Positions 8,637 to 64,000 are shown, counted from the first letter of the stretch. The stretch: DNA of 64,000 bases from Oscillatoria sp. PCC 10802 (GCF_000332335.1 NZ_KB235948.1:2740513-2804512), one strand, 5' to 3'. The notes: generated from the letters alone by a model not told the origin. Numbers and translations are program-made.

Positions 8637-8647
8637 TTGCATCCCAA

Positions 8648-8950: not shown

Positions 8951-9091
8951 GAATGACTTTCTCAGCCTCGATTAAAGACACCATTCTCTATGGTATCAGG
9001 TTTGGGGGGGTGATGAACCGCCCCCGTGAAGAGTCGCCAAGGAAGAGGAAGAGAGGGGGCGGGGGGAGCGGGGGTTTGGGCACCGGCACCT

Positions 9092-19118: not shown

Positions 19119-19288
19119 TATAGCAGTAGGCACTTAGGTTAGGACAAGGGGTTTAAGATGATGTAGGGGCGGGAACACCGACAAAGAGTGCCACACAGCT
19201 ACAACACTGATAAACCCGCCCCTAACCTCTGATATAGCAGCCGGCAATTGGGCCATAGCGTGTCCTAACCAATATGACTGCTGCTATA
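19119..19288. mobile_element. MITE-like element family R3, copy B, carrying a nested R4 hairpin element at 19163..19227.
   Basis: TIRs TATAGCAGTAGGCACTTAGGTTAGGAC ... GTCCTAACC..CTGCTGCTATA. The internal insert has GTAGGGGCGGG...CCCGCCCCTA termini. Confidence 0.6.
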
Positions 19289-19392
19289 AAGGCCAAGACC
19301 GGCGCGGGCCTGCGGGGCCGCGCAGATGGCCCGAGTTGCGCTAGCATAACAAAAGTTAACATTCCGCTCAGGATGAGTTGCAGCTACCCGCG

Positions 19393-42300: not shown

Positions 42301-43097
42301 CCATAGAAGCTGTGAGCGTAGGAAGCAGCTTGGATTAATTTGGCGCTTTCTTTGTCCTCCCGCTTAAAGGCGGTGAAGTACAGCTTCAAGTCCTCGGAAA
42401 ACTCCACCCCCAAGTTGCCGGTGGAGCCGGTGTCTATCCGCAGTTTGGAGAAAAAGCTTTTGGAGCGCAAATAGCTAATCTCGCGCAGCAACATGCGCCG
42501 CTGATTCTCCAGTTCTCTGTCTTCCAAGTCTAAGAGGTCTTGTGCGGACTTGACAGAAAATACGGATAAGTCTAGGGAAAGAATCCTGTACTTATCTCGG
42601 TTTTTCAAGAGCATCAGGGTGTCCGCTTTCAAAAACTCTCCCTTGTTTTTGTGCCGGCGAATCACCGTATCCAGGTTATCTAGAGTGCCAAACTGAGACA
42701 GGAACTCGGCATATTCTTTATCATCAGGATTTTTGGAATAGGTTTTGATGCTGTTCTCCCCACAAAAGCTGCACTGGTAATAGAGAATTTCGGTATTTGG
42801 CAAGTGCCGGTCGTCCCAACCGGCAGCTTTGATGTACTCCCCGAAGAAGTTTAACCCAGAGAGGAAGCCTTTCTGGATCGTGTACAGGCTCCACTTTTCT
42901 ACAATCCCGATATTCTCAGTGCTGATCAGTTCTTCATCCTCAACCATCCGCTTCAGCATTGCGGGGAAGTGCAAGTGCTGCAAATCGTGCCGGTACAGGT
43001 TGCCAAAGTTGTGCTTGATCTGGTGGTGTTCGATAAAGGCGAGGATGCCAATATTGAACCCCACCTCAAAGAGCCGGCCTAAGTTTTCTGCTATCAT
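39363..43097 (-). CDS. Large (1244 aa) uncharacterised protein with an SF2-helicase-like P-loop NTPase core (gene B of a two-gene island)
   Basis: Walker A GNPGIGKTT, Walker B FIMVDEITGDD, motif V-like TSSASRGLSFP (compare DEAD-box TDVAARGLDIP), motif VI-like QVIYRARG. An N-terminal region of about 400 aa has no recognisable motif. Lower GC than its flanks. Confidence 0.6.
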   Translation of the reverse strand: MIAENLGRLFEVGFNIGILAFIEHHQIKHNFGNLYRHDLQHLHFPAMLKRMVEDEELISTENIGIVEKWSLYTIQKGFLSGLNFFGEYIKAAGWDDRHLPNTEILYYQCSFCGENSIKTYSKNPDDKEYAEFLSQFGTLDNLDTVIRRHKNKGEFLKADTLMLLKNRDKYRILSLDLSVFSVKSAQDLLDLEDRELENQRRMLLREISYLRSKSFFSKLRIDTGSTGNLGVEFSEDLKLYFTAFKREDKESAKLIQAASYAHSFYGFLLQTCILTESAPVVFNAVGYSDRGISAMSLRPENLNVLATCAKIYKNEAKKPEINIARREVLGIIQRNANRSFTDGKLFVEALSEKPLSLREDGIAEITHTERMDGFLNSIDTISADLASQLDISPKSHLRDAHAELIRKALVSDDTYIFLTGNPGIGKTTAIANFLQAHLDEGFLFFYVSPRKQVNLDIIEKFKSPDTEQLSDSRLFCINTNASIIKENGGKPTVEYHSNQRQDDFTAKSIHFLNATRERQRREQQPQRLKQETEDTFRDIGERTAGVLSSICEGIHALIDSKSCNNIVATASIQSLRITPNGANTLEHLDKIFKGAYNKREGKVIPSAMRQISQRIKHVFIMVDEITGDDSGVNFLKGISQFLSRFQLAKHGFNTKVIVADASIVDPEVITQHLSEASPEPDKIYFRMAKQTAAPISVSRFPFKRAGAIAINANSYPARSLSITYKVFVECLKYSEEAFSYKGNSLVKAVQSKIAEDISAYLEHPDADQLLVYIQDKKRLQELIEKLRSRREKFKENEDYLEIHANLSEEAKKNIHRHKNNVKVIFMTSSASRGLSFPKAKRILAEIPRFQVERNLMEVIQVIYRARGEYWENGESKTLDGEDKELIFYLSDRALYYPKERDMSFEDYAKERQLSIQESVLSLLNILLILKISVMTRIVGAWRLGRKEFMMIPIGGKSVSAAGDTFTSQMTNLIRELKNEHRRRPSNLTLQQVYTSLQEILSRAEFTLLDADKPRKPVSPRNRLSEQLSYLSLRDLFNRQFSQLCGSFDKLLDYGKIEPGHISGSLLVVPVGEKTLEETYQIRLEQQIRKHATPELIAKMRAISHSLEYPENLRTALRGGAMELVKLLSGEVTRTQWFEQSSQRDDQYYALPLFAFIAGEAMRDYFKTNPEEEEDTEFRTLMSRYVHSLYPAYNTLPIGRKYGEFPFLIFRSYSLEEMREKIFTDKYLLTSSELNVLNLILSKEK

Positions 43098-43277: not shown

Positions 43278-46200
43278 TTATCTAGATGCCTCCTCTATTA
43301 ATGCTTTCTTAATCTCGGTCATAAAGGCCAAAGCGTTAAACTCAATCTCCCCTCTCATGTGGTTAAATATAGACAGCTTCCCAAAGGAATCATCCCCGAT
43401 GATATTCTCGTAAGGGTCGAGTTTTAAACTGATGTTGCTGTTTTTCTCGAACCTCGAAAAGTGAAACAGCGTCAGGTATTGCAGCAAGTCAGCTTTCAGG
43501 GGAGTGTCCTCCAGCAATCCCCGCCGGATATCCATGTCATCGAGAATGCCTTCATAGATATTCACCAGTGTGGCGTAAGAAACAACGCCATTGTAAAAGC
43601 GCTCCTCGCTGCTCCCTACCGTAATCCCATTAAACAGGTTGAAAAACACAACAGCTTGCTGCTGGGGATCTCTGGACACACTTGTTAGCTGCTCGGTGTC
43701 TGTGACATACAGGGATTTAGCACGCCGTTCTCTTCTCTCCTTGTTGATGACGTAGTATTTATCAAAAAACACCGGGTATATCTTAATGTCCTGACGCTCT
43801 CCCTTCAACTCCTTGATTAGTTTGGGCGACATAAAATACAGTTCCTCTTCCCCCTGACTCCGGGTGATGTGCAGGGTGCTGGAATAGGGAGCTTGCGCGA
43901 TATACAAAAAGTGCCGGTAGCCCTCACGATAAAGATTGTCCACCGTATTGATGAGCACCGGCGCGTCGCGATAGATCCGCCAATTCGGGTAATTGTCAGA
44001 GAAAGTCTTGAGAATCTCCAGCCGAACAGTACCGTCCGCTTGGCGCGTGACGCTCACCACTTCTCCCAGCAAATTGGAAATGCGGCTGTTCCGGTTCCTG
44101 CTCCCTGTCCTAGCGTCGCTCTCTACGCTGGATACTATAATAATAGCAAGTTTTTCTAGCGTTGGAAACTCATCGACGAAACGAAACTTTTTCGGAAGCA
44201 CAGAGTACAGGGAACTCAGACCATTAGCAATGGTGTACCCTTTCAGGTTCTTCACCCGGAACCCTTGCGAACTGCACCGGCATTTCTCATTCAGCAGGTG
44301 GGACAGCCCTTTAGAAAGGTTTGCCAAAAACTTCTCAACCGGAAAAGGATTATTGTCGTCGCCCTCGTGCAACCGCAGCATCGGGACAAATAAATTGTCC
44401 GGAGCATTTTCCAGCAGAAGGTTCAGGCATATAAGCGCCAGCACGACCCAGGTGAACTGGTAAACAAAAGCCTGAGAGATGTCCAACCGATTCGGGTTAT
44501 TCTCGTTTAGATGCCGGTTGTCGTAGGGAAACAGGATTAGCTTGTGATGCTGCAAATTTTTGGTGTATTTTTCCCAGCAGGGATCTTGTTTGGGAACCCA
44601 AGCCACCGCCAGCGCACTTACCCCTTTTATATCATATTCCCAGCTGAACTTTTCCCGCTCTTCAGCCGGAAAGTAGCGGATATCTTCTATCGTAATGCTA
44701 GCCGGCAGCTGGCAGAGAGCGCCCTCATCCACATGCGCCCCGCCAATCGAGATATATCTCAAGCATTCCTTGGGATTGCGCCCCAAAACCTCCCTTAAAA
44801 AAGCCCCGTTAATCATGCTGTCGATCTCCCCTGGCGGGTTCAGGATGCCTTTCCTCACCGCAATCTGGATGGGATAGGTTCGGGTTGCCAAAATCGTCTG
44901 TCTCTCCAGAAAGTTTTTCAGCAGTTCCTTCAGCCGGCTTATCTTGTGGCGCACATTATACTCATTGAAGCCTCGCACAATTCCCCGAAATAGTTTCTTT
45001 TTCGCCTCCTCATTATCCCCCCGCAACACCGGCAAAACTTTTTCAAAGCCGGCAATTGGATCGTACTCCAGCTCGGAGTCAGGACTGTAATTGGGGTCTA
45101 AAGGATTGCTGCGAGAAGCAAAGACAAAAAAGTACAGGAGCACTCGCCTCAACACCCGTTTAGCAAAGCTTTCCTGCTTAGAAGAGTCCCCGATTTCCTC
45201 CTGATGTTTCTTGCTGTCTGGATTGATGATATCCAGATTGTAGTCAAAGACTTCATCCCCTCCCAGCGCTTGCACCTTGCCGGCCAACTTCAATTTTAGG
45301 CCAAAAACAAACTGAATCTCTCCCCCGCTCCTGTCCGTATTTTCTCCCAAATACCCGCCTACAATAGGAATGATCGGAAGGGAGTCCAGAGCTTCAGCGC
45401 GGGAAAACGCATCTTTATAGTTAACCGTCGCCCCAGCATAGCTCACTTCATAATGGCCATCCGGTCTGTCAGCGCTGATATACTCTTCTATCAGCCTCAG
45501 ACGCCGAATTAAATCTCGCAGATATATAAGTCCGGCGGTGTCTTGCGTCTCGATGCTGTCTCGCAGATACTCCAAATAAGTAATTTCCGCTTCCTTCTTC
45601 AGCTTCCCCAGAGTTTCTGTATCGACAATTTCCTGCAGCTGGTAAAATTCAGAAAATTCAGCGATTTCCAGACGGTCGAGAGCGCTATACAAATCTGCCC
45701 TGTCCTCTTCACTTTCCCAAGGCACTTCTTGCTCAATGTAGTTTTCCAATCCCCGCTTGAGATTTTCTTGAAACTCATCGATATTCCGCACCGCAATTGT
45801 GAGTTTGTGGAATTTCAGCAGGGACTCACCACCGGGACGGTCGAATTCTAGACTGAGTTTCTGTTTCACCAGGTTATCATACCGCTTGCCAAAGTCGTAG
45901 GCCAAACCCAACTGATCTGGTTTTCTCGTCGGAAAAGATTGCAAATCGCGCGTGATTAAACCGGCAACCAGTTCCTGAATAGAGCCGGTTTCTCCCAGTG
46001 CGGATTCTAGCTTCTCCCTCAAACACTCTCTTATCTCCCGCACCTTACCCGGAAAGACTTCTCGAAACCCCCGGCTAAAGTTGACACTTGCGGAGCGAAC
46101 ACTTTGCGAAGACTCCAGGGGATTCTGCACCTGCGCCGAAGTCGCGAGAGAGGCGGCTAATTCATCAATATCAACAAGCAACTTGCGGCGATCTCCCGAT

Positions 46201-46304
46201 ATCCTGAACGGATTGTGATTCCGCAAAGCCCGTAAAATCTTGTCCAGCAAATCGCTGTAGTTCACGGCGACTAAATCGCCGTCCCCCTGCTGTAAGATGT
46301 TCAC
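43278..46304 (-). CDS. Large (1008 aa) uncharacterised protein (gene A of the two-gene island)
   Basis: Single uninterrupted ORF. I recognise no catalytic motifs. Compositionally matched to gene B. Confidence 0.5.
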   Translation of the reverse strand: MNILQQGDGDLVAVNYSDLLDKILRALRNHNPFRISGDRRKLLVDIDELAASLATSAQVQNPLESSQSVRSASVNFSRGFREVFPGKVREIRECLREKLESALGETGSIQELVAGLITRDLQSFPTRKPDQLGLAYDFGKRYDNLVKQKLSLEFDRPGGESLLKFHKLTIAVRNIDEFQENLKRGLENYIEQEVPWESEEDRADLYSALDRLEIAEFSEFYQLQEIVDTETLGKLKKEAEITYLEYLRDSIETQDTAGLIYLRDLIRRLRLIEEYISADRPDGHYEVSYAGATVNYKDAFSRAEALDSLPIIPIVGGYLGENTDRSGGEIQFVFGLKLKLAGKVQALGGDEVFDYNLDIINPDSKKHQEEIGDSSKQESFAKRVLRRVLLYFFVFASRSNPLDPNYSPDSELEYDPIAGFEKVLPVLRGDNEEAKKKLFRGIVRGFNEYNVRHKISRLKELLKNFLERQTILATRTYPIQIAVRKGILNPPGEIDSMINGAFLREVLGRNPKECLRYISIGGAHVDEGALCQLPASITIEDIRYFPAEEREKFSWEYDIKGVSALAVAWVPKQDPCWEKYTKNLQHHKLILFPYDNRHLNENNPNRLDISQAFVYQFTWVVLALICLNLLLENAPDNLFVPMLRLHEGDDNNPFPVEKFLANLSKGLSHLLNEKCRCSSQGFRVKNLKGYTIANGLSSLYSVLPKKFRFVDEFPTLEKLAIIIVSSVESDARTGSRNRNSRISNLLGEVVSVTRQADGTVRLEILKTFSDNYPNWRIYRDAPVLINTVDNLYREGYRHFLYIAQAPYSSTLHITRSQGEEELYFMSPKLIKELKGERQDIKIYPVFFDKYYVINKERRERRAKSLYVTDTEQLTSVSRDPQQQAVVFFNLFNGITVGSSEERFYNGVVSYATLVNIYEGILDDMDIRRGLLEDTPLKADLLQYLTLFHFSRFEKNSNISLKLDPYENIIGDDSFGKLSIFNHMRGEIEFNALAFMTEIKKALIEEASR

Positions 46305-49797: not shown

Positions 49798-52011
49798 ATG
49801 GACACTATACTGGGACAAACACTAGGTGGACGCTACAAAATCATCAGCTCCTTGGGAGGCGGGGCGTTTGGCCAGACCTATATTGCCGAAGACCACCAAC
49901 TGCCTGACCACCCTCGGTGCGTCGTCAAGCAGCTCAAACCGCAGGCGAAAGACGAACTGACACTCAAGACAGCCAGACGTTTATTCGACACCGAAGCCAA
50001 AGTCCTGCACCGGTTGGGAAGCCACGACCTGATCCCGCGCTTGCTAGCGCACTTTGAGGAACAGCAGGAATTTTATCTCGTGCAGGATTGTATAGAAGGA
50101 GAGCCTCTCAGTCAAGAGATTCAACCGGGCAAGCAGCTGAGTGAAGCCTTTGCCGTCGCCCTGCTGAACGATGTTTTGCCGGCACTAGCGTTTGTCCACC
50201 GGCAGAACGTCATCCATCGCGACCTCAAACCCTCCAACTTAATCAGACGCGCCGGTGACGGGAAATTAGTCCTCATTGACTTTGGCGCAGTCAAACAAGT
50301 CAGCAGCCAGGGGATCAGCGAAGGTGTTACCGTTGCCATTGGCACTCCCGGCTACATGCCCAGCGAACAGCTAGCCGGCAGTCCCCGCCCCAACAGCGAC
50401 ATTTATGCCTTGGGCGCGATTGCCATCCACGCCTTAACCGGCATTGCGCCATCCCGATTGCCGCAAGATCCGGTTTCCGGCGAGCTCGTCTGGCGCGACA
50501 GAGCCCGGGTGAGCGAACCGCTGGCCCAGATTTTGGACAAAATGGTGCGCTCGCACTTCAGGGACCGCTACCCGTCCGCAGAGGAAGTCCTCGCCGACCT
50601 GGCCAACCTGCCCCAAGGGGACCGCACCGAAAACCAAGGGGAGCCCACCCCCTCCCAAATCAGACCGCCCAACCGCTCAACACCCACCGGCGGTGCGCCC
50701 GACACCCCCACTGGGACGGTAGTGCCCCCCCCTGTGCCGCGCCGGTTCAAGCTTTGGCACGTCGGGGCGATAGTGGCGGTGTTGGGATTAGCCGCCGGCA
50801 GCCTAGCGTTTTTCCTGCGCCCAGATCCGCTCAGCCAAGCCAATAAATTAATCGACGCCCAGCAGCCAGAAGCAGCGCTCACTATCGCTGACGGGGTGCT
50901 CAAAAACCGGCCCGATGACGCAAAAGCCTGGAAAATTCAAGGCGATGCCTACTTTTTTTTAGAGCGCTACGAGCAAGCGCTCCTCGCTTATGACAGAGCG
51001 CTGAAAATCCAGCCCGATGACCCCAAAATTTGGAATAACCGGGGCAAGACCCTGTATCAATTGCAGCGCTACGACGAAGCCCTAAAATCTCATGACAAAG
51101 CCCTCGAACTCAATCCGAGTGACGTGCAAGCCTTGAACGGTCGGGGACGCGCCCTGATTGGCATGAAGCGCTTTCAAGAAGCGCTCGACGCCTTTGACAA
51201 AGCCCGCCAAATCCAGCCGAAAGAGCCCAAATCTTGGGAGAACCAAGCTTTTGCCTTAGAGTATTTGCAGCGCTCGCAAGAGGCGCGCCAAGCCTATCAA
51301 GAAGCCCTGGCCTCCTACAGCGACACCCTCAAAGCCAATCCCAAGGATATCCAAGCCCTGGTTGACCGGGGGAATGTGTTAAGTAAATTGCAGCGCTTCC
51401 CAGAGGCGCTCAATTCTTTTGAGGGGGCGATTGCCACCGACCCAAACTACTATCCCGCTTGGGTTGGCAAAGGCAGTGCGCTGTTTTTCTTGCAGCGCCC
51501 GGATGACGCGCTCAAAGCCTACGACAGGGCGCTGGAAATCAGGCCGAAATTCCATATCGCTTGGCACAACCGAGCCTCTTTGCTCGCTGAATTGCAGCGC
51601 TTTGAAGAGGCCATCAAGGATTATGACAGGGCGCGGGAATTCAACCCAGACTTCTATCAGGCGTGGCGAGACAGGGGATTTGCTCTCTTGCAATTGCAGC
51701 GCCAGCAAGAGGCAATCGTTTCTTTTGACAGAGCCCTGAGAACCGAACCCAATGACCCTAAATCTTGGGTGGGTCGGGGCATCGCCCTCACCGTCAGCAA
51801 GCGCTACGACGAAGCCCTAGCCGCCCTTGACAGAGCCATAAAAATCGCTCCCAGCGATCCGGTTGCCCTGTTGAACCGAGGTGTTGCCCTGGAGGGTTTG
51901 GGACGGAACGAGGACGCGCTGGAAGTCTATAACAAAGTGATTGAAATTCAGCCCAACTTCTTGCCGGCTATCCAGCAGCGCAAGCAGTTGCAGGAGAAGT
52001 TAGGGCGCTAG
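49798..52011 (+). CDS. Serine/threonine protein kinase with a TM segment and a C-terminal TPR-repeat array
   Basis: GxGxxG, VAIK-like K, HRDLKPSNL, DFG, APE motifs. At least 12 TPR repeats. Confidence 0.85.
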   Translation: MDTILGQTLGGRYKIISSLGGGAFGQTYIAEDHQLPDHPRCVVKQLKPQAKDELTLKTARRLFDTEAKVLHRLGSHDLIPRLLAHFEEQQEFYLVQDCIEGEPLSQEIQPGKQLSEAFAVALLNDVLPALAFVHRQNVIHRDLKPSNLIRRAGDGKLVLIDFGAVKQVSSQGISEGVTVAIGTPGYMPSEQLAGSPRPNSDIYALGAIAIHALTGIAPSRLPQDPVSGELVWRDRARVSEPLAQILDKMVRSHFRDRYPSAEEVLADLANLPQGDRTENQGEPTPSQIRPPNRSTPTGGAPDTPTGTVVPPPVPRRFKLWHVGAIVAVLGLAAGSLAFFLRPDPLSQANKLIDAQQPEAALTIADGVLKNRPDDAKAWKIQGDAYFFLERYEQALLAYDRALKIQPDDPKIWNNRGKTLYQLQRYDEALKSHDKALELNPSDVQALNGRGRALIGMKRFQEALDAFDKARQIQPKEPKSWENQAFALEYLQRSQEARQAYQEALASYSDTLKANPKDIQALVDRGNVLSKLQRFPEALNSFEGAIATDPNYYPAWVGKGSALFFLQRPDDALKAYDRALEIRPKFHIAWHNRASLLAELQRFEEAIKDYDRAREFNPDFYQAWRDRGFALLQLQRQQEAIVSFDRALRTEPNDPKSWVGRGIALTVSKRYDEALAALDRAIKIAPSDPVALLNRGVALEGLGRNEDALEVYNKVIEIQPNFLPAIQQRKQLQEKLGR

Positions 52012-53673: not shown

Positions 53674-56600
53674 CTAGAGAACGTCTTTCCGCTTCTGCAC
53701 CACCAACAGGAGGCCAAACATGCCCGCCATCAGCAAGCCCAGGGAACTCCAGTGCTGAGTCACATCTACATTGAAAGTGCGGCCATAATCTTTATTGAAC
53801 CGTTCGAGAGTGCCTTCCGCTTCCCCAATAGCGCTTTCGTATTTCCCTTTCCAATCGCTGTACTTCTCCTGCCAGCTGTCGATGGCTTTTTTGTATTCAT
53901 CCACCTTCTGATTGTAAGCATTAATATCCTGCCTGAAATTGTCCATTTCCTGCTGGTATTCCGGTGTGGGAATTTCCGGCGCTGTGGGCTGGGGTGGCGG
54001 ATTCCCCGGATCTTGTGGCTTCTCAGGTTCTGGCTCGTCTACGGCTTGGTTGTATTTACCGCGAATCCCAGGAAACTGACAGCTTTTGAAAATCCTCGGC
54101 CCGATACAGGCGCATTTCTTCTGTTCCGAGTCGCTGAGTTTCTTGCGCTCCTCCTCCGGCAGCTGCCAGCACTGGTCATTGGCCACATCTTTGCCCAAGC
54201 CGGTGAGCGTCACCAGCGACTCAAACGGCCATTTGCTGAGGGTGAGCTGGTTGATCGCTTTCCCCGGCGGGCCAAAGTTTTCCACGGACAGCATGCCGCC
54301 GCCAAAGGTAATCTGCGGCACCAGGAAAACAATCGTCAGCAAAGGAGCCACATTCTGATTTGGGGAAATCGCCGAAACCAGCAAACCCATTACCATACCG
54401 GCAATCGTCGCCAGGAACAGCGTCACATACATGCCGGCCAGCACTTCTGTCCCGCCGGGAATGTCCACCGCCAGAACCTTAAACAGCAAGAAAACCGCCG
54501 CCTGATACATAGCCAGCACGACGCTAACCCACACCTTTGACAGGATATAAGGAAGGAGCTGCAAACCAATGGTTCGCTCCCGGCGATAGATTTCCTGCTC
54601 CTTAACAATTTCCCGCATCGTCGCCAGACTGCCAACCATCACCGCAATCAGAGCAGCCGTGAACAGCATCGTGATCGCCTGACGCGGATCTCCTTGCCCG
54701 GCATCGAACAAATCGCGCTTCCAAGTGACAAAATCCAGCAGTCCCAACACCGGCGCGATGGCCAGCATCAAAATCAGGCTAGACCGGTCGCGCATCAAAA
54801 TCGCCAAATTGCGCTCAGACAGAATCAGGAACTGACCCAAAGCCGAGATGCGCTTCACCTTAGCCCCTGGTCGCTGTTTCTGCGGGCGCGGGCTTTGCCC
54901 CCCTGTCGCAGGCGCTTGCAAAGATTGCTGCCGGCGCACCACATATTTCTGATATTGTGGCGAATTGAGGTAGCGCTGCTGCCATTTTTCGGGCGAGATT
55001 TCACGCTCAACCAGACGGTAAATTTCATCAAAATCTCCCACCCCAAAGTAGGCGGGGGCTTCTGCCGGCGGCCCGAAGTAGGCCACATACCCTCCCTTCG
55101 CCAGAAACACCACTAAATCGCACATTTTGACATTTTTAGTGGCGTGAGTGATCAGCAGGATGGTGCGCCCTTGATCCGCTAGTTGGCGCAGCAACTCCAT
55201 AATCTCTAGCTCTGTCCCCGGATCGAGGCCAGAAGTCGCTTCGTCGAGAAAGAAAAGGCTGGGTTTAGTGAGCAGTTCCACCCCCATCGACACCCGCTTC
55301 AGCTGACCGCCGCTGAGGTCTTTCACCGGCACGTCCTTGCGGTGAGTCAGTCGCAGCTCTTCGATCACCTCCGCCACCCGCTTCTTGCGCTCCGCCCGCG
55401 TCGTGTCCGCCGGCATCCGCAACCGGGCTGCGTAGTCCAGAGCTTGCTCTACGGTCAGCTCTGTATGAACAATGTCCTTCTGGGGCACATAGCCCAGTTC
55501 TGTGCGGTAAGCGTTAAAGTTCTTGTACAGGTCTGTGCCGTTCACCAGCACCGTGCCGCTAGTTGCCGGTCGGAAACCATTGAGGGCGTCGAGCAGGGTG
55601 GACTTGCCGCCGCCACTGACGCCGGCAATCACCACAAACTCCCGCGCTTCGATTGACAGAGATATGTCATTTAAAAGGTTAACGTCCTTGGCGACGACCT
55701 TATTCAAGTGCACGGCGTCCAGGCGCAGGTTGCCCTGTTCGTTTTTGCGGACGAGGGTTTCATCGACGTTGAAGACTAAGCTGCATGGCCCGATGCGGAT
55801 GGTGTCCCCGGCCATCAGCACGCGCTCGGCGTCAATCTGCTTGCCGTTGACGAAGGTGCCGTTTGTCGAGTTGAGATCGGTAATGGTCCAGGAGCCGGCT
55901 TGCTTGACAATTTTGGCGTGGAACCGGGACACTGCAGGGTGGTCGATGGCCGTGTCGTTTTGGGGGTCGCGCCCCAAGCTGAGGCTGGTGCGCCCGCGCA
56001 AGTCCAGCTGCTCGACTGCAGTTGGCATTACGGTTGCCGGTGCTAGCTCGTAGGTGAGGGTGACTTCCCCACCAATTTGCAATACGTCCCCATCTGCCAA
56101 GACCTTGCGGTCGATGCGGTGGCCTTCGCTTAGCAGGCCGTTGGTGCTGCCGAGATCGACGATTTCATAGCCGTTTGACCTCCGTCGCAATTCGGCGTGC
56201 CGGCTCGAAATCACCGACGCATCAATGCGAATGTCACAATTGGGGGCGCGACCGATAACGATGGTGTCTTTTGACAGGGGGAAATTCCTCGTCCCCTGCG
56301 GCGTTTGCACTCTCAGCACCGACGCGCCGGAGGCTGCGGCTACAACCGTGTCTGGTAAAGTGGAGGAAACATATACTTCGGTCTTTTCTTCTTGTGCGGC
56401 CACCGGGCAGAATCGCAGTTCAAATATGTCGATGGCGATTCTGTCACTGTCGGCTAAGGGGTGGGGTTTGTCAGGTTGCAGTTTAATGTCATTGAGCAGC
56501 GTGCCCTTTGAGCTCCCTTTGTCGGCTATTGTATAGCCGTCTGCTTTCCGGACAATCTGAGCGTGGTGGCGCGAGACGGTGGGCTCGTTGAGGACAAGGG

Positions 56601-56706
56601 CGTTTTCCGGTGCCCGACCGATGTCGGTCAGGTCGCGGTCAAGCAGGAACTCTCGCTCAAGGTTGCCGCCTCGATAAATTTCCAATTTGGCAGAGGGTGG
56701 GGACAT
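53674..56706 (-). CDS. FHA-domain-containing ABC transporter (three N-terminal FHA domains, ABC ATPase, ABC-2-type permease) with a coiled-coil C-terminus
   Basis: Three repeats of G(R/S)....D..(L/I).........S..HA.I. Walker A GVSGGGKST, LSGGQ, Walker B FLDEATSGLD. Six TM helices. Confidence 0.85.
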   Translation of the reverse strand: MSPPSAKLEIYRGGNLEREFLLDRDLTDIGRAPENALVLNEPTVSRHHAQIVRKADGYTIADKGSSKGTLLNDIKLQPDKPHPLADSDRIAIDIFELRFCPVAAQEEKTEVYVSSTLPDTVVAAASGASVLRVQTPQGTRNFPLSKDTIVIGRAPNCDIRIDASVISSRHAELRRRSNGYEIVDLGSTNGLLSEGHRIDRKVLADGDVLQIGGEVTLTYELAPATVMPTAVEQLDLRGRTSLSLGRDPQNDTAIDHPAVSRFHAKIVKQAGSWTITDLNSTNGTFVNGKQIDAERVLMAGDTIRIGPCSLVFNVDETLVRKNEQGNLRLDAVHLNKVVAKDVNLLNDISLSIEAREFVVIAGVSGGGKSTLLDALNGFRPATSGTVLVNGTDLYKNFNAYRTELGYVPQKDIVHTELTVEQALDYAARLRMPADTTRAERKKRVAEVIEELRLTHRKDVPVKDLSGGQLKRVSMGVELLTKPSLFFLDEATSGLDPGTELEIMELLRQLADQGRTILLITHATKNVKMCDLVVFLAKGGYVAYFGPPAEAPAYFGVGDFDEIYRLVEREISPEKWQQRYLNSPQYQKYVVRRQQSLQAPATGGQSPRPQKQRPGAKVKRISALGQFLILSERNLAILMRDRSSLILMLAIAPVLGLLDFVTWKRDLFDAGQGDPRQAITMLFTAALIAVMVGSLATMREIVKEQEIYRRERTIGLQLLPYILSKVWVSVVLAMYQAAVFLLFKVLAVDIPGGTEVLAGMYVTLFLATIAGMVMGLLVSAISPNQNVAPLLTIVFLVPQITFGGGMLSVENFGPPGKAINQLTLSKWPFESLVTLTGLGKDVANDQCWQLPEEERKKLSDSEQKKCACIGPRIFKSCQFPGIRGKYNQAVDEPEPEKPQDPGNPPPQPTAPEIPTPEYQQEMDNFRQDINAYNQKVDEYKKAIDSWQEKYSDWKGKYESAIGEAEGTLERFNKDYGRTFNVDVTQHWSSLGLLMAGMFGLLLVVQKRKDVL

Positions 56707-57182: not shown

Positions 57183-57761
57183 ATGAAATGGCAAACTTTT
57201 TTGTGGCTGAGTCGCCGGTTAATGCCACCGGCAGCCAGCAGCATTATATTATATAGCCTGTGGGCGGTGTTTGGGGGGAGCGGCGCACTCGCCGCCGAAA
57301 AGATTGTGTTCAATGCTAGCAGGGGGCAGCTATCCCTGTCTGCCGGCGAGCTAGAAACCTTCGCGCAAACCGGCGAAGTTTCGGCTGCAGTTAGAGATTT
57401 GCTCAAAGCGACGCGACAAGAGCCTGAAATTGTGCGTCAGGCGCTGACGAAAGAAGTGCCGGTGAGTCTGCGGATTGCCGATCGGGCGCTCAACAGCCAG
57501 ATTGGGGAAGCTGTGCTGGATAAAGTGGGCGAGGTGGTGCACACTCCCTCGGGAGGAGCGGACCGGCAAGCTTTGCGGGCGGCGTTTGTCCTGTCGGCGA
57601 GTGGGGATAATAAAATCAGCCTGCTGGAAGTTATTAAAAATTATCCCACATCGGAGGTGGAAGTAGAAGCCGACCGGCTCGCGGACGGCTTTAAGCAACT
57701 GAGCCGGTTTGGGGAAACCCTGCAAAAGTGGAGAGATAGGTTGCCAAAGATAGTCCGCTGA
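57183..57761 (+). CDS. Hypothetical secreted protein
   Basis: Signal peptide ending ALAAEK. No further motifs. Confidence 0.4.
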   Translation: MKWQTFLWLSRRLMPPAASSIILYSLWAVFGGSGALAAEKIVFNASRGQLSLSAGELETFAQTGEVSAAVRDLLKATRQEPEIVRQALTKEVPVSLRIADRALNSQIGEAVLDKVGEVVHTPSGGADRQALRAAFVLSASGDNKISLLEVIKNYPTSEVEVEADRLADGFKQLSRFGETLQKWRDRLPKIVR

Positions 57762-57823: not shown

Positions 57824-59068
57824 TTAAGGCTTAATCCCATCACAAAGGTGCCGGTCGCTCTCAGGGAGAGTGGCATTGGTTTTCAGATAGTCACGCGCCC
57901 AATCGCAACCGTAACGCAGCAGATCATTTGCCTTCAAGTCCAAATTCCACAGAATCAATCTTCCAGCTTTGTCAGCGGAAGCAAGAGTGTGGCCATCAGG
58001 GCTGAAATTGACGCTGAAGACATAATCGTCGTGACCCTTGTAGGTTTTCAGTTCCGTACCATCCAAGCTCCAGAGTTTGACAGTGTTGTCTAAACTGGCA
58101 GTGGCAAGGGTAAGGCCATCGGGGCTGAACCTGACTCTGAAGACACCAGCATTATGACCTGTGAGGGTTCTAATTTTTTTACCTTCAGAAGTCCAAAGCA
58201 CGACAGTTTTATCCTCGCTGGCAGTGGCAATTATTTTGCCGTTAGGGCTGAAAGTGATGCTATGGACTGCATCGGTATGCTCCGTGAGGGTTTTGATTAG
58301 CTTACCTTCACGAGTCCAAAGTTTGGCAGTCTTGTCCCAACTGGCAGTAGCAATTGTCTTGCCATCGGGGCTAAAAGTGACGCTATTAACTTTATCGCTA
58401 TGCCCATTGAGGGTTTTGAGCTCTTTTCCATCTCGGCTCCAGAGTTTGACAGTTTTGTCAGCACTGGCGGTGGCAATCGTCTCACCGTTGGGACTGAAAG
58501 TGACCCTCCAGACCCAATCTGTATGACTGTCGAGGGTGCTGATTTCCTTACCTGAGGGATGCAAAAGTTTGACAGTCCCATCAGCAGTGGCAGTAGCAAT
58601 CATCTTGTTGTCGGGGCTGAAACTGACGTCAGTGACCTCACTGTTATACCCCTTAAGAGTTTTGAGTATTTTCCCATCCAGGCTCCAGAGTTTGACAGTT
58701 TTGTCAGCACTGGCGGTGGCAATCGTCTCACCGTTGGAACTGAAACTAACGCTATATATCGCATTTTTGTGCGCCGGAATGATTGGCAGTTCCTTACCTG
58801 CCACCTTCCAGAGTTTGACGGTTTTGTCCTTACTAGCAGAGGCAATCATCGTCCCGTCAGGGCTGAAACTGACGCTCCAAACCCAATCCTTGTGTCCGGT
58901 CAGGGTTTGGAGGTTATCGCCGTCTAAGCTCCAGAGTTTGACGTAACCGGCTCTTTGGGTTCGGTCTCCCACCGACTCCAAGTTGATAAAGAAAAGCGAT
59001 GGTTCATTTGAACCGACAGCTCCTCTCTGGAAAGCCCCACGCGCTCTCGCAGGAAGCGGAGCATGCAA
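57824..59068 (-). CDS. WD40-repeat protein (about 8 repeats). The N-terminus begins mid-repeat, so this is a likely 5'-truncated remnant.
   Basis: Repeats of GH.D.V.SV.FSPDG..IA(S/T)AS.DKTVKLW. The first recognisable segment is only the tail (...YVKLWSLDG) of a repeat. Confidence 0.7.
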   Translation of the reverse strand: MHAPLPARARGAFQRGAVGSNEPSLFFINLESVGDRTQRAGYVKLWSLDGDNLQTLTGHKDWVWSVSFSPDGTMIASASKDKTVKLWKVAGKELPIIPAHKNAIYSVSFSSNGETIATASADKTVKLWSLDGKILKTLKGYNSEVTDVSFSPDNKMIATATADGTVKLLHPSGKEISTLDSHTDWVWRVTFSPNGETIATASADKTVKLWSRDGKELKTLNGHSDKVNSVTFSPDGKTIATASWDKTAKLWTREGKLIKTLTEHTDAVHSITFSPNGKIIATASEDKTVVLWTSEGKKIRTLTGHNAGVFRVRFSPDGLTLATASLDNTVKLWSLDGTELKTYKGHDDYVFSVNFSPDGHTLASADKAGRLILWNLDLKANDLLRYGCDWARDYLKTNATLPESDRHLCDGIKP

Positions 59069-59393
59069 ATTTGCTCGGAAGGTGACGGCATAGATCCCTC
59101 TGATCTAAATCTAAATTTGACTGCATGGCCTAGGTGCGAGCATGGGCCATAACGCTAACTTATCGCTTTAGTGTAAATTTGGGTAGTCAAATTTGCTTGA
59201 AAAGTTCGCAAATCAAGAACTATCTGGCCCATCTTTTACGATTTTGCGAGGTTCTAGCCTTGAAAAGGGAGGAAATAAAAGAGCAATGGCTTGCTTGGGG
59301 CTCCCCCGCGTGCTACTCTTTTGGTTTAAGGCTGCTGGCATCTTGAAGTGCGGTAGGTGCTGGCGGCCATTAATAGAGGAAGGAGACAATCAG

Positions 59394-59921
59394 ATGCAAT
59401 ATTGGGCTTGGGCTTGGACAAAAGGCGCTATTGCGCTCTCTGCTCTTCTGTGGGGAGTGTCTTGGGGCAGCACCAGCGCATTTGCGCAGCGCATCTGCCC
59501 AACTGCTAAGTCCTGCTACGATCGCGGGACTCAAAGCATGATCAGTAAAGAATGGGGGGCAGCAGCCCTTTTCTTTGGAGAGGCGCGCGAGCTTATGAAG
59601 CCTAGGTGCGATTCCAGCGTTGAGCACCGGCTGGCGATTTCAGAAGTGCATTCTATACGGGAGGCGTATCAGAGAGAAAAAGCAGGAGGTTCCCCTAGAG
59701 CAGAACAGTTTTTCCAGGAGCTGCAGCAGGCGTATCTCGGCAGCTCCAATTTTTGCCCAACCCATGCCGCTTGCATCCGAATTGCGGGGCTGGCTAGAGA
59801 GAAAGGAGACTTTCAGACTGCTTTGGTAAATGCCAAGCGCGCGCTGTTTCGCGATCCTGGGAGCAAAGAAGCAAATGGAGAGATCCTTGTTGCAACAATC
59901 AAAATTTGCAACAGCAGGTAA
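59394..59921 (+). CDS. Hypothetical secreted protein (175 aa)
   Basis: SD AGGAGA 7 nt upstream. Signal peptide ending AFAQ. The ORF-track N-terminal extension is unsupported. Confidence 0.4.
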   Translation: MQYWAWAWTKGAIALSALLWGVSWGSTSAFAQRICPTAKSCYDRGTQSMISKEWGAAALFFGEARELMKPRCDSSVEHRLAISEVHSIREAYQREKAGGSPRAEQFFQELQQAYLGSSNFCPTHAACIRIAGLAREKGDFQTALVNAKRALFRDPGSKEANGEILVATIKICNSR

Positions 59922-59922
59922 C

Positions 59923-62448
59923 TTACACCGGCACCATTCTGGGCATCTGTACTTTGGCCGAGCTTGCAACGCTCTCTTTGATGTCCTCGAACCAGACGCA
60001 CCAAAGCTGGCCGTAGGGGTAGAACTGTGTGTGCCGGCTGCCCCCGTCTGACTTTGCAATAACTCCATTTGGCCCTGCGGTTACTATCCTGAGCAGGCTG
60101 GATGTCCCCGCTCGCCGGCAGAGCTGCGCCGATTCTGCCATTTCTTGTGTCAGAGGGGATGGCGTCAGAAACCCTTGGAGCCCTCCCCACCCATTCTCTA
60201 CCGCCCAAAGGTGCGCGGCAACTCTGTGCCTGCACGCATTTCCTGTCTTGCTACTACAAGAGGAACACCAGCGCGAGCCTACCTCTCCGTCCGCCGCGCT
60301 GCTCGCTTTTACGCGAAGCAGCCGAGGTTCGTGAGATTTGATCGCAACCGGAAGCTGCCTGGCCTCTCCCCACGTTTCTAGAAACTCAAGGAAGTTTGAC
60401 GTTTTTGCGTAGAGCGGCTCCCCGTCTTTTTTCTCCGCTCGCAAGTAAAGGCCATTAGTGAAGGCAACCGAATTTAAGTTTGATGTGAGGGCCGTCCCTT
60501 TCTTCCGAAAGTAGAAGTAAGAAGCAGCAGCCTGGCGGAGCAGCCCCTCTTCTCTCCCCCCAGCCCACAGAGCTGTTAGCAGCGCTGTCACCCTTCCCCT
60601 GTTGACAACCAATGGAGCGAGAGGAGACGTGTCTACGATCTGGACATTCCCATCGGTCACGCTCATACCCGCCACTTGACCCTGCCCTTCTGAGGCAAGA
60701 AAGATTTGCCCTATTTCTTGAACTGCAGCGGTCTTGAGAAAGGTGCAGCACTTTCCTCTCTTAACTGCAGTTAGCAATGCATCCAAGAAAGGCTGGCGTT
60801 CGGACTCTGGATTTTGGGTGTAGAGTTCCTCAAACTGGTCGGCGATTAAGATTAGGCGAGTGCCCGGGTTTTGCTGCACGAGGCTTTCGATGATTTTGTA
60901 TAAGGCTCGCGGATCTTGCTTCAGTGAGATGGCCAATTCCAGTTCAATTAACCGGCGGGCATTTTCACCGTCACCGCTTTCCCCCGGCTGCTGCAGGCGC
61001 TCCCAGCTAGGGGCGAGCGCGACCGCCAAGGCATCAAAAGGATTTTTCCCCGGACGAAAAGAGACAATCTGCCAGTGAACAAGAGTGTCTTTTCGCAATT
61101 TGGGCAGGGTGCCGGCAAACATCACGCTAGACTTGCCACTCCCACTGGCACCGATGGCAGCCACCAGCGGCTTTTTTTTCACCGCCGCCACCAAATCCTC
61201 GGCGAACGGCTCCCGCCCAAAGAAGAGGTGGGCGTCTTCTTCTCGGAAAGCAAATAAACCCCGATAGGGACAGGGGGGAATCCCGCCCAACTGCAGCCAA
61301 GTTGCCGGTTCTACTGCTGGATTTTGGCAAATTACAGGCAGCCAAGAAGCGCCGGGGAAGTCATTTTCTAAACCTTGTAGCTTTCTTCGCGCTTGCTGCG
61401 CGGCGAGATATAAAGGAAGTCGCTTTTGTGCGAAGGCTTCCAGAAAATGCTTGCAAAATTCCTGCGCCACGCGATTCGGCACCGGCTCCCGCATGACAAT
61501 CACTGCGGGAAGGTTCAATTTCTCCAGAGCGAGAGCCAGTCCTAGCCCGTCGCAGGAGTTGAAAATCGCCAGCTTTAAACCGTTTTCAATGGCTTGTGTG
61601 AGAGCTTCTTCTAACTGTCCGACGGTCAGGCTATTGTTGGTTTTGTTTTCATTGATATAAAGTCTGCCGGTTTCGCCCTCGGTTTGGCTGTGACCGGCAA
61701 AAAAGAGGATGTCCCAGCCCTGGTCGTTCCAAAGCTGGGTGTTCAGTTGCTGGCGCGAGGGCTTGACAAGAAATTCGACTTCTGCATCTGGCAAGTTTTT
61801 CAGAAACCGGCTCTCTGTCTCCAGATTGATGCCAGAGCTATTGCCGAGAACGGCCAAGATCCTGACTTTTTCGCGGGGGGCTTTTGGCTGTGAGGGTTGG
61901 GTGCGTTTGTACTCGGGTCTGCTCAGAGCCATTTCTGCTTTGGGATAATCGCTAAAGAAATCCCAGCAATGCCAGGGGAATCGCCGCAGCAATTCATCGC
62001 CGGTTTCGACAATGACCCGAATTTCTTCTGCTGTGTTGAGTTGCGCTCTCAGTTGCTGTTCAATATGGATAAAGTCTTTAGACTTGAGCCAAGCATTGAG
62101 GCTCTCTTCTAACTTTTTGCAGACCTCCTCGAAACCGAGCTGAGAGACGTTGGTTATTCCCCCTTCGTCGATTTCCAGCTCATCGTCATCTTCCTCGCGA
62201 GCCGGTGGGGAAAGCAGCTCTTTGCGAGCGCTGAGACTCCTATAAACTAACTGCCAGTTCTGGTACAGTTCAGCCAGAACCGGCGCTGGGGGCAAACTGC
62301 CGGTGAATTGCTGCGGCAGGGGGTGGCCCGCTTCTCGCAGCTGAGCGGTAACTCTGGGAAATCCGCTGTTTAAATCGCCGGCTCCCAGATTGATGACCAC
62401 TGACTTGATCATTTCAGAGTTCAAAATCTTCCTTAACGCTGACATCAC
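59923..62448 (-). CDS. CHAT-domain (caspase-like protease) / P-loop NTPase fusion protein. The true start is probably at 62412.
   Basis: CHAT His/Cys dyad (LFFAGHS ... AIFNSCDG) in the N-terminal third. Walker A GASGSGKSS and Walker B LILIADQFEE follow. The ATG at 62412 lies 1 nt after the upstream gene's stop (TGA-A-ATG). Confidence 0.65.
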   Translation of the reverse strand: MMSALRKILNSEMIKSVVINLGAGDLNSGFPRVTAQLREAGHPLPQQFTGSLPPAPVLAELYQNWQLVYRSLSARKELLSPPAREEDDDELEIDEGGITNVSQLGFEEVCKKLEESLNAWLKSKDFIHIEQQLRAQLNTAEEIRVIVETGDELLRRFPWHCWDFFSDYPKAEMALSRPEYKRTQPSQPKAPREKVRILAVLGNSSGINLETESRFLKNLPDAEVEFLVKPSRQQLNTQLWNDQGWDILFFAGHSQTEGETGRLYINENKTNNSLTVGQLEEALTQAIENGLKLAIFNSCDGLGLALALEKLNLPAVIVMREPVPNRVAQEFCKHFLEAFAQKRLPLYLAAQQARRKLQGLENDFPGASWLPVICQNPAVEPATWLQLGGIPPCPYRGLFAFREEDAHLFFGREPFAEDLVAAVKKKPLVAAIGASGSGKSSVMFAGTLPKLRKDTLVHWQIVSFRPGKNPFDALAVALAPSWERLQQPGESGDGENARRLIELELAISLKQDPRALYKIIESLVQQNPGTRLILIADQFEELYTQNPESERQPFLDALLTAVKRGKCCTFLKTAAVQEIGQIFLASEGQGQVAGMSVTDGNVQIVDTSPLAPLVVNRGRVTALLTALWAGGREEGLLRQAAASYFYFRKKGTALTSNLNSVAFTNGLYLRAEKKDGEPLYAKTSNFLEFLETWGEARQLPVAIKSHEPRLLRVKASSAADGEVGSRWCSSCSSKTGNACRHRVAAHLWAVENGWGGLQGFLTPSPLTQEMAESAQLCRRAGTSSLLRIVTAGPNGVIAKSDGGSRHTQFYPYGQLWCVWFEDIKESVASSAKVQMPRMVPV

Positions 62449-63499
62449 TCAGACTGACTTCAAGACTGAAGCGGGTTGCCGGTTTAGCTTTAAAGGATTT
62501 CAGCTGAATGTAGTTATCTTGACTTCTGGAAGTGACTTCCTGAAGAGTTTTCCCCGCTTTCGACAGCAAAGTCAATTTGAGATTGGCCGGCAAATACTTT
62601 TTCCCGCCCGCCGGATGCAACTGCACCAAAACACCTAATTTCTCCTCAGCCTCTTCTGTGACAGTCACCAGCAGCGCCACGGTTTGACTGCCCAGTTGCA
62701 TTCCCAGGTTAATGAGTTTACCTCGCTTCGCACCCGACTCAGCATTGCTGGCTCTCAGAGCTAAATTGGCTTCTGGGCTTATCAGTGCGTCAATCGCCTG
62801 CCAGTTTTTGTCAAAAACGCCCTGCAACCACTGGCTCAACTTGGTTCTGGTTTCTTCCAGGTATTCCAGCAAGTTTTCTGCCGCCCCTGTTAAGGATGAC
62901 ATGGCTTGACCCTCGGCTGTGGCAGAAAGAGGAATAGCAGCCGGTTCCAAGAAGCGACAGTAGAACAGCAGGTGATTTGGCTCCGCATCAAATTCTGATA
63001 GCGGCAGCCTGTAACAGCCATCTCGTGAGGGCTTTAAATTAGCTATACTTAGATAATTAAGCAGCTGGTCGCAACGCTGAAAGCCTCTCACAAGAACTTG
63101 TTCCTGTTCGTCCAATACCTCAAGCAACACATAGAAATGAGCTGCCAAGTCCGGTCTGTCGATGGCATCTGCCGGCAGGCTCACCACTTCATCAAGCACG
63201 TGTTCTGTCGCAAGCAGATAGAACTTAAATTTGCCAACCATGAGATGGCAAACAGCCTCACTGACCGCAGGATCTCGATTTAATATTTTATCCGGCATGC
63301 GGTCACTTAGCCATTCTTCAAAGCCAAGACTCGCCAGTGCGTTCAGATAGGTTTGCCACTGCTCGGCTTCTCCTGTCACCCGCTCGCTAATCTCTCTCGC
63401 CCGCTCGAAATGTTCTGGTTCAAGGTCTACGGTTTCAGGCAGCCACACCCTCAAATCCGTTGAATCTACCGGAAAAAACACCATAACCCCATTCCTCAT
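62414..63499 (-). CDS. DUF1822-like hypothetical protein
   Basis: 361 aa, acidic. The family assignment is from memory of cyanobacterial CHAT-gene neighbourhoods. It overlaps the upstream gene by 4 nt. Confidence 0.45.
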   Translation of the reverse strand: MRNGVMVFFPVDSTDLRVWLPETVDLEPEHFERAREISERVTGEAEQWQTYLNALASLGFEEWLSDRMPDKILNRDPAVSEAVCHLMVGKFKFYLLATEHVLDEVVSLPADAIDRPDLAAHFYVLLEVLDEQEQVLVRGFQRCDQLLNYLSIANLKPSRDGCYRLPLSEFDAEPNHLLFYCRFLEPAAIPLSATAEGQAMSSLTGAAENLLEYLEETRTKLSQWLQGVFDKNWQAIDALISPEANLALRASNAESGAKRGKLINLGMQLGSQTVALLVTVTEEAEEKLGVLVQLHPAGGKKYLPANLKLTLLSKAGKTLQEVTSRSQDNYIQLKSFKAKPATRFSLEVSLSDVSVKEDFEL

Positions 63500-64000
63500 G
63501 TTCTTTTTTCAAAATAAATCCGAAGTTGCTGGGCGTAAAAGCTGTTCATCGACCGGCTCTTCCCCGCCCGGATTTCTTCTGCAGCTTCTTGGAAGATTTC
63601 TCGATCCGCAAAAGCTTCGATTTGCTCCGCCAGGGTTTTCAGATAGTCCGGTTCAGGGGGAATCTTGGTCAGACCCATACCTTGAGCCTTTTCTAACGTC
63701 CTGTCGAGAAATTGCTGCACAGTCCGCTCGCGCACCTTTTTGAGAAGGTCCCCCGGATTCAACACCCGCCTGGCTTGATCCCAACTTGTCATTGCCAACA
63801 GGGGAGCAATCTCCCTAAGAGACATGCCCTGACCGTAATAGAGTTGCAAACCAGGAAGGAAGTTTGCTGCTATATTAGCATACCTTTTGCTTTTTTGCAA
63901 GTGGGTGAGGCGAGAGGCAATCTCTCGCTCTATTGCTTGGGCCAAAGCTAACTTGAGTTGCTCGTGCAAGAACTCCTGAAGTTCCCGCTGTTCGACATGT
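63496..64000 (-). CDS. Sigma-70 region-4-like HTH protein, partial (5' end outside the window)
   Basis: ANFLPGLQLYYGQGMSLREIAPLLAMTSWDQARRVL matches the sigma region-4 pattern L..LP...R.V..L.Y..G.S..EIA..LG.S..TV. The ORF stays open to the window edge. Confidence 0.45.
   Translation of the reverse strand, partial: HVEQRELQEFLHEQLKLALAQAIEREIASRLTHLQKSKRYANIAANFLPGLQLYYGQGMSLREIAPLLAMTSWDQARRVLNPGDLLKKVRERTVQQFLDRTLEKAQGMGLTKIPPEPDYLKTLAEQIEAFADREIFQEAAEEIRAGKSRSMNSFYAQQLRIYFEKRT

Follow-up and report, generated by a model that had tools for sequence, protein, structure and literature searches.

A probable chimera with phage-like DNA in a decaying EACC2-caspase/sigma-like/DUF1822 cassette of Kamptonema formosum

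When a cyanobacterial gene couples a caspase-like CHAT protease to a P-loop NTPase and ends in a region that resembles neither, is that region a new domain of a conflict system or did it come from elsewhere? The question is raised by a stretch of 64,000 nucleotides (nt) from Oscillatoria sp. PCC 10802 (GCF_000332335.1, NZ_KB235948.1:2740513-2804512), referred to here in its whole length as the window, with positions counted from its first letter. The minus strand of window 59923..64000 holds three consecutive open reading frames (ORFs), at 63496..>64000, 62414..63499 and 59923..62412, which an initial annotation made from the sequence alone had read as three tightly linked genes for a sigma-region-4-like protein, a DUF1822-like protein and a CHAT-NTPase protein; the ORFs and their short spacings are indeed present. 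Our analysis indicates with good confidence that the locus is a decaying copy of the EACC2-caspase/sigma-like/DUF1822 cassette described computationally by Kaur, Iyer, Burroughs & Aravind (2021; eLife 10:e70394, PMC8195603), and that its third gene is a chimera with phage-like DNA. Judged by where its homologies begin and end, the apparent "novel C-terminal domain" is a fusion artefact. The elements of the third gene and of the segment that interrupts it are as follows.

59923..62412, minus strand: chimeric third ORF; ATG at 62412, stop at 59923..59925, 829 amino acids (aa)
60768..62412, minus strand: native part of the chimeric ORF, 548 codons; EACC2-like region, CHAT (H241/C287) and first ~40% of nSTAND1 with Walker A and Walker B
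60760..60769, minus strand: junction A; homology to the phage-like contig starts at 60767
59923..60767, minus strand: foreign gene fragment fused in frame; 3' ~280 codons and stop of an orphan 317-aa gene
59394..59921, plus strand: foreign 175-aa gene, apparently intact; signal-peptide-like N-terminus, weak TPR
58948..59091, minus strand: foreign XRE-type helix-turn-helix (HTH) repressor fragment; first ~48 codons, cut off at junction B
57824..58947, minus strand: orphaned 3' end of the ancestral gene; 373 codons and stop, 8-9 WD40 repeats and family tail, no start codon of its own

The N-terminal part of the third protein is recognizable as CHAT followed by the beginning of a STAND NTPase. 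CHAT (PF12770) matches residues 173-351 with an E-value (E) of 2.5e-13 and 50.6 bits against a gathering cut-off of 24, and both residues of the proposed dyad, H241 in FAGHS (61692..61690) and C287 in FNSCDG (61554..61552), show no variation in two alignments, of 8 and 19 homologues, so that the earlier CHAT call with this dyad holds. We accepted ATG 62412 as the start because it agrees with the N-termini of the homologues, which open MSKSVVINLG where the window protein has MIKSVVINLG. The P-loop NTPase called next to the protease is of the STAND type, with Walker A (GASGSGKSS, 61152..61126) and Walker B (D525, 60840..60838) both lying within a match to nSTAND1 (PF20703; E 1.9e-40, 140 bits against a gathering cut-off of 27.1); the call was right about the motifs and wrong about an intact NTPase. 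The match covers profile positions 1-153 of 379 only, as against 1-378 of 379 at 392-417 bits in intact homologues, and with positions 154-379 unmatched the complete STAND module, a P-loop core plus helical/winged-helix arm, is absent from the window protein. Residues 1-547 share 57-70% identity with the first ~550-600 residues of 12 intact homologues of 1450-1600 aa. In the protein alignment this family homology stops at ...FLDALLTAVK, from where the homologues go on LAPAFTLVLTLRADFYG... and the window protein reads RGKCCTFLK.... The NCBI annotation of the 829-aa protein is 'nSTAND1 domain-containing NTPase [Kamptonema formosum]'.

The sequence beyond this break has relatives of an altogether different kind. 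Compared with 5.8 billion proteins, the last 274 aa of the chimera gave two matches only, both to stand-alone proteins and both at 100% query coverage, namely P0001 (317 aa, 85% identity) and P0002 (322 aa, 62%), whose first ~38-42 residues are missing from the window copy. At the nucleotide level, window 58948..60767 aligns with positions 7658..9467 of contig L001 at 83% identity over 1824 nt, colinear across three genes. The L001 equivalent of the 175-aa gene, at 8507-9034 on the minus strand, is 86% identical over 176 aa (58% for the counterpart on contig L002), the 175-aa product itself having a weak TPR_2 match, and the XRE fragment matches the N-terminus of a 193-aa HTH_31 protein on L001 with 86% identity over 51 aa. 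Nucleotide homology to L001 stops at 58948, our junction B. We name the segment phage-like from gene content only, L001-type contigs having genes for a ribonucleotide reductase of phage type (phrog_367, E 2e-148), for XRE repressors and for a giant methyltransferase/radical-SAM protein. On L001:14242-18480 (plus strand) lies an unusual fusion, a protein of more than 1413 aa with DNA-methyltransferase-like regions (phrog_799, phrog_1008) and a C-terminal radical-SAM part. Neither the foreign 274 aa nor P0001 has a match in Pfam, NCBIfam, PHROGs or PADLOC, and an exhaustive profile search with the foreign protein family against 1.84 billion representatives returned its own cluster and three noise matches at E~1e-4. 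A SWIM-like CxxC...CxH motif seen by eye in the foreign protein was dropped, as it had no profile support.

The uncharacterised C-terminal region of ~300 aa that had been taken as part of the NTPase protein is accordingly a real open frame, but foreign from codon ~549. This bears on the reading under which the three genes form an intact and novel nucleoside triphosphate (NTP)-dependent conflict or abortive-infection cassette with a genuine new sensor or effector domain of ~300 aa at the C-terminus. Such a cassette would explain why the 829-codon ORF is unbroken and ordinarily annotated at NCBI, why the dyad and Walker A/B motifs are intact and why the trio is conserved elsewhere; it would leave unexplained an NTPase that ends at 40% of the nSTAND1 profile, a C-terminal region that is the 3' part of a separate gene without its own first ~40 codons, and the two more colinear pieces of the foreign element that come next, one on the opposite strand and one cut short. 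No other protein among the 5.8 billion joins these parts, and the ancestral 3' end is stranded downstream. We consider this reading very unlikely.

That stranded 3' end is found in window ORF 57824..59068, which encodes a WD40 protein (PF00400, E 3e-98, 8 repeats) in which the foreign segment supplies the first 40 codons as read-through. The native sequence, from 58947 on, opens in the middle of a repeat (VKLWSLDG), and the fragment ends with the family tail, LILWNL..LLRYGCDWARDYLKTN..DRHLCDGIKP, the consensus of which in intact genes is ...VILWNL..L..GC.W..DYL..NP...R.LCD; its very end, LILWNLDLKANDLLRYGCDWARDYLKTNATLPESDRHLCDGIKP, is the same tail as in intact trio-linked genes. Over its full length the 373-aa fragment can be aligned with the final ~375 residues of the intact homologues (residues 1165-1539 of 1543 in L033, for example), and the tail matches at E 1e-11 to 1e-17 in 10 of the 12. 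In loci where the trio is adjacent, the intact third gene usually encodes 1450-1600 aa (1453-1592 aa where it was read through to the stop) and consists of a constant module, a full nSTAND1, a basic stretch with one hydrophobic helix, a WD40 array and the conserved tail. The head (548 aa) and the tail (373 aa) match the two ends of such genes and leave a gap of ~600 residues between them; this alignment therefore shows, as far as sequence comparison can, that ~600 central codons (~1.8 kb) were swapped for 1.82 kb of foreign DNA, a loss that took in the final ~60% of nSTAND1, the transmembrane helix and the opening repeats of the WD40 array. A copy of this nSTAND1 middle was looked for in the rest of the 64-kb window and not found.

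It might be argued that the ancestral CHAT-nSTAND1 gene was short (~900 aa) and that the WD40 fragment is the remnant of a separate neighbour. The closest protein-database matches to the window protein (66-68% identity) are indeed 876-949 aa long and without WD40 Pfam domains, although many of these '~900-aa' matches come from short contigs of 3-7 kb; the Mastigocladopsis protein P0005 ends just past the transmembrane helix, and such WD40 tails are common in cyanobacteria. A neighbouring gene would not account for a fragment that lies on the same strand, immediately adjacent, with its 5' end cut within a repeat and its 3' end carrying the tail common to full-length trio-linked genes. A separate origin is thus unlikely, and we retain a single ancestral ORF with head and tail as its two ends. 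At the sensor end of another member of the family, L006:393-3404 (Microcoleus sp. CSU_2_2) encodes a 1003-aa homologue in which the tail (RDYLQNNP..RHFCDGI) comes straight after nSTAND1 and the transmembrane helix, and WD40 repeats are absent. The WD40 array of this gene appears to have been lost whole and in frame, a sign that the sensor end of such genes is recombinationally unstable.

Sharp homology boundaries of this kind, with no terminal repeats, could also be produced in the computer, by joining misassembled chromosomal and phage or plasmid reads. Misassembly is disfavoured because a Logan contig (L003, run SRR3926829) carries both junctions at 100% identity over 5293 nt; it is a separate assembly, though one that may share reads with the first. 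The GC (guanine plus cytosine) content across the junctions is unremarkable, and we regard an artefact of assembly as extremely improbable. Transposon insertion was considered as well and rejected, there being no terminal inverted repeats or target-site duplication at 58948/60767 and no transposase in the segment. Base-by-base comparison of the left junction, where ...AV(K/R)LAPAF in the native family stands against ...PVKRGKC in the donor, suggests a possible 8-nt microhomology, CAGTTAAG, at junction A. Because terminal repeats and target duplication are lacking and a microhomology may be present, the replacement was probably brought about by illegitimate, microhomology-mediated recombination rather than by transposition.

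Is the cassette that was interrupted in this way a new one? By its sequence, the trio is the EACC2-caspase/sigma/DUF1822 cassette already predicted by Kaur et al. 2021 (PMC8195603), whose computational survey describes 'EACC2-caspase' systems with hypervariable C-termini coupled to an extracytoplasmic function (ECF)-like sigma factor and DUF1822, stresses autoproteolysis for the EACC2-caspase and assigns 'TPR' to DUF1822. The window locus resembles these systems in its caspase with H241/C287, in the DUF1822 gene directly upstream with the sigma-like orthologue above it, and in its cyanobacterial distribution; it differs from them in that the C-terminal module is broken, nSTAND1 stopping at 153 of 379 before unrelated phage-like sequence, with the transmembrane helix and part of the WD40 array lost. 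The proposal that the cassette acts in biological conflict or signal transduction agrees with this published computational reading. The statement that it had not been functionally described is right in so far as we found no experimental study of the EACC2-caspase/sigma/DUF1822 system in the literature, but the system itself is not undescribed, given the 2021 prediction.

The conservation of the trio as a unit is borne out by its gene neighbourhoods. GTDB representative genomes were scanned with the conserved protease module, which yielded 587 relatives, with 53-74% identity to window residues 1-385, and 79 loci were kept, 70 of which were informative. The order sigma-like, DUF1822, CHAT, adjacent and co-oriented, occurs in 15 of these 70 cyanobacterial loci; in a further nine, DUF1822 lies within 10 kb, either alone or paired with the sigma-like gene, eight have DUF1822 directly upstream of the CHAT gene and no detectable sigma-like gene, and 38 have neither partner. 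DUF1822 thus stands immediately upstream of the CHAT gene in 23 of 70 loci in total; L016, the one locus checked in a group of six whose DUF1822 gene had looked short, encodes a full but divergent DUF1822 protein (412 aa, E 1e-84). The sigma-like orthologues of the 15 adjacent trios, directly upstream of DUF1822, share 45-66% identity. The third gene in these 15 is of the nSTAND1(-transmembrane-WD40) type in 11, carries CHASE2 in two and is a bare constant module in two, while the C-terminal variants of the protease family at large are CHASE2, NB-ARC, nSTAND1, ANF receptor, PF26309 and the bare module.

Several protease paralogues are often found near one sigma/DUF1822 pair in a genome, as in Mastigocladopsis. 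In Mastigocladopsis repens (L004, 411-12682) a single sigma-like/DUF1822 pair has CHAT genes of three kinds behind it within 12 kb: a TPR-CHAT gene (903 aa), a CHAT-CHASE2 gene, on the opposite strand along with DUF928, and a CHAT-nSTAND1 gene (893 aa) ending just past the transmembrane helix. From the three CHAT genes at L004, one sigma/DUF1822 pair may therefore serve several protease-sensors.

Two close relatives of the window locus retain the partner genes and have no protease. In the metagenomic contigs L084/L085, which are 97% identical in nucleotides to window 62400..64000 (sigma-like protein 93% and DUF1822 95% identical in aa), homology ends ~13 nt into the CHAT ORF and repeat-bearing DNA comes next, with no CHAT gene. 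The lineage is, as these comparisons indicate, losing the cassette. In the DNA standing in place of the L085 CHAT gene, a ~170-nt element occurs twice in direct orientation (~6830-7000 and ~7115-7290); it is also present at L084 12836-13008. Since one of the copies is 91% identical to window 19119..19291, the element may be a dispersed repeat in the lineage, similar to a miniature inverted-repeat transposable element (MITE).

In a family of this kind the fusion might itself be functional, an 'integrated decoy' in which the captured phage orphan fragment would be a freshly made receptor, bait or sensor and the truncated P-loop only a linker. Frequent swapping of C-terminal modules defines the family, both in the published survey (PMC8195603) and in the variants found here, the fusion is in frame and stop-free, and the donor looks phage-derived. 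The breakpoint, however, lies within the NTPase fold, whereas all other variants change modules at a boundary at ~aa 380; the swap also brought in a gene on the opposite strand and a truncated repressor gene, as random illegitimate recombination predicts; an in-frame junction is a 1-in-3 chance; and the sister lineage simply deleted its protease gene. Were it true, the locus would be a natural snapshot of bacterial NLR-like/caspase immune sensors gaining specificities from the invaders they detect. We hold it to be quite unlikely, and take the chimera to be a product of decay.

The partner genes and their features in the window are listed below.

63496..64000, minus strand: sigma-like gene, 3' 167 codons and stop; 5' part past the window edge, full length 523 aa
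63679..63879, minus strand: putative sigma-70 region-4-like HTH, aa ~397-463 of the 523-aa protein; motif LQLYYGQGMSLREIAPLLAMTSWDQARRVL
62414..63499, minus strand: DUF1822 gene; maximal ORF 361 aa, probable true start ATG 63484 (356 aa)

The second gene encodes a DUF1822 protein, as had been supposed before any profile search, and the match takes in the entire profile (PF08852, E 2.2e-73, 1-370 of 370). At the 3' end of this gene TGA-A-ATG was confirmed at 62410..62416, the DUF1822 stop lying 1 nt ahead of the ATG of the CHAT gene. At its 5' end the annotation had placed a 4-nt overlap with the sigma-like gene. The ATGA at 63496..63499 is physically there, but it is probably not the true gene start: in L085 the gene upstream of DUF1822 stops with TAA, and DUF1822 begins at a Met matching window ATG 63484 behind the Shine-Dalgarno sequence AAGGAG (GAGGAA in the window), a Met that is conserved in an alignment of 20 DUF1822 orthologues. 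Because of this stop and this conserved start, the two genes, though still tightly linked, probably do not overlap: a spacer of 12 nt that has its own Shine-Dalgarno sequence would lie between them. In the DUF1822 orthologues the N-terminal half is helical and the C-terminal domain rich in beta structure; the low-complexity linker of variable length that joins them at aa ~190-215 is a candidate cleavage or hinge site, and all 20 orthologues finish in an invariant E.F(E/Q)(L/I/F) immediately ahead of the CHAT start codon. A single-sequence AlphaFold2 model places beta strands at aa 265-361 with a predicted local distance difference test (pLDDT) score of 60-87. The DUF1822 family profile found no meaningful match among PDB sequences.

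The first gene runs past the window edge at 64000, and its extension had been suggested; in the separately assembled same sequence (contig L003:1353-2924) the complete gene encodes 523 aa. The product has no Pfam match at threshold, and its 698 detectable homologues are all annotated 'hypothetical', none with a Pfam domain; its family profile gave no meaningful match to PDB sequences. Below threshold, the 523-aa protein matches NCBIfam sigma70-ECF at E 0.016, and among 40 homologues the commonest Pfam families are Sigma70_r4 (11 members) and Sigma70_r4_2 (7), with a best E of 0.0032. An AlphaFold2 model built on the alignment of 40 sequences (mean pLDDT 77) was compared with the PDB by Foldseek, and the 17 best matches were all sigma-70-family chains, at E 0.013-0.3; the chains were sigma-A (Thermus, Mycobacterium, Streptomyces) and sigma-S, with ~390-470 columns aligned at a TM-score of ~0.2. 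This evidence, consistent but weak, supports a sigma-region-4-like product, and with its sub-threshold Sigma70_r4 matches and fold-level resemblance the earlier HTH call appears to have been right.

Among systems elsewhere, two offer a similar logic that has been demonstrated by experiment. In the type III-E CRISPR Craspase (Strecker et al. 2022, PMC10028731), Cas7-11 with Csx29 (TPR-CHAT) cleaves Csx30, an inhibitor of CASP-sigma/RpoE. There as here, a CHAT-family protease is linked genetically to a sigma factor and a third protein, and a sensor-activated protease governs, or in the cassette would govern, transcription; the Craspase sensor, however, is RNA-guided Cas7-11, as against a STAND NTPase/WD40 in the cassette, and the likeness is one of logic by analogy only. 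The type III CRISPR system CalpL-CalpT-CalpS (10.1101/2024.05.08.593097), composed of a SAVED-Lon protease, an anti-sigma and an ECF-like sigma, is likewise a tripartite cassette of protease, sigma partner and sigma, with proteolysis switched on by ligand-driven oligomerisation; its protease is Lon and not CHAT, its activator is cA4 and not an NTPase switch, and here too the likeness is drawn by analogy. With STAND/NLR-like conflict proteins (nSTAND1-6 of Kaur et al. 2020; Avs-type) the intact orthologues share the order effector, NTPase, repeat sensor, and they differ from them in the transmembrane helix between NTPase and WD40 and in the sigma-like coupling, which speaks for an output in transcription and not for one of suicide alone. 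In PADLOC-DB v2 no model matches the sigma-like protein, DUF1822, the chimera or the foreign protein, and an intact orthologue matches only a WD40/HEAT-repeat model and weak P-loop models.

How might the intact cassette work? It would comprise a divergent sigma-70-like protein of ~500 aa, DUF1822 and an EACC2-CHAT-nSTAND1-transmembrane-WD40 protein of ~1500 aa, encoded by co-oriented, tightly spaced genes. The C-terminal sensor (WD40, probably across the membrane; CHASE2 in paralogues) would detect a signal, upon which the STAND NTPase would switch or oligomerise and so activate the CHAT protease. The protease could then cleave itself and/or its DUF1822 partner, and cleavage would release or activate the sigma-like protein and turn on a response regulon, by analogy with Csx29-Csx30-CASP-sigma and CalpL-CalpT-CalpS. 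In the window copy the left junction happens to fall in frame, giving an 829-aa chimera of EACC2-CHAT-P-loop stub and 280 aa of an orphan phage-like protein. Because the switch and the sensor are gone, the ancestral regulation of the protease is no longer possible, and the K. formosum cassette is most likely non-functional or at best deregulated.

Several observations weigh against this account. As regards the disruption, we found no native pre-disruption allele above ~70% identity, so that the breakpoints, the microhomology and the origin from a single ORF are inferred from orthologues; the 829-codon chimera and the 373-codon remnant are both stop-free, which fits a recent event and equally a retained function. 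As regards the donor, the contigs that resemble it are uncultured metagenome or SRA assemblies, and no relative of the donor segment or of the foreign protein family was found in the viral contig collection. As regards the partner genes, the sigma-like identity is sub-threshold by sequence, with E 0.013 as the best Foldseek value; no sequence match to Sigma70_r2 was obtained in any of the 40 homologues, and the case made here is for a region-4-like protein, not for a complete sigma factor that includes region 2. The role of DUF1822 as binder of the sigma-like protein or as CHAT substrate is proposed by analogy only, Kaur et al. stressing autoproteolysis, and the single-sequence DUF1822 model, with a mean pLDDT of 45, was unusable for structure search.

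Outside the cassette, the neighbouring genes encode a triple-FHA ABC-2 transporter fusion (1010 aa, 53674..56706, minus strand), a Ser/Thr kinase with a long TPR array (737 aa, 49798..52011, plus strand) and a DUF1400 protein (57183..57761, plus strand). Further away in the window, a 1244-aa protein (39363..43097, minus strand) that matches Helicase_C and, weakly, an nSTAND3/AAA_22 P-loop adjoins a 1008-aa protein without Pfam match (43278..46304, minus strand), and the two could be another conflict-system pair.

The chief value of the window copy is a correction of annotation, and its intrinsic interest is otherwise low: the 829-aa protein is publicly annotated as an ordinary nSTAND1 NTPase, and its C-terminal 280 aa should not be read as a new CHAT-STAND domain. 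Together with the sister lineage that lacks the protease gene, it shows how fast the cassette can decay. The cassette itself is widespread in filamentous cyanobacteria, where a caspase-like protease with interchangeable sensors is paired with a sigma-like protein and DUF1822, and intact orthologues such as those of Nostoc parmelioides (L033) and Leptolyngbya PCC 7375 (L037) are good experimental entry points.

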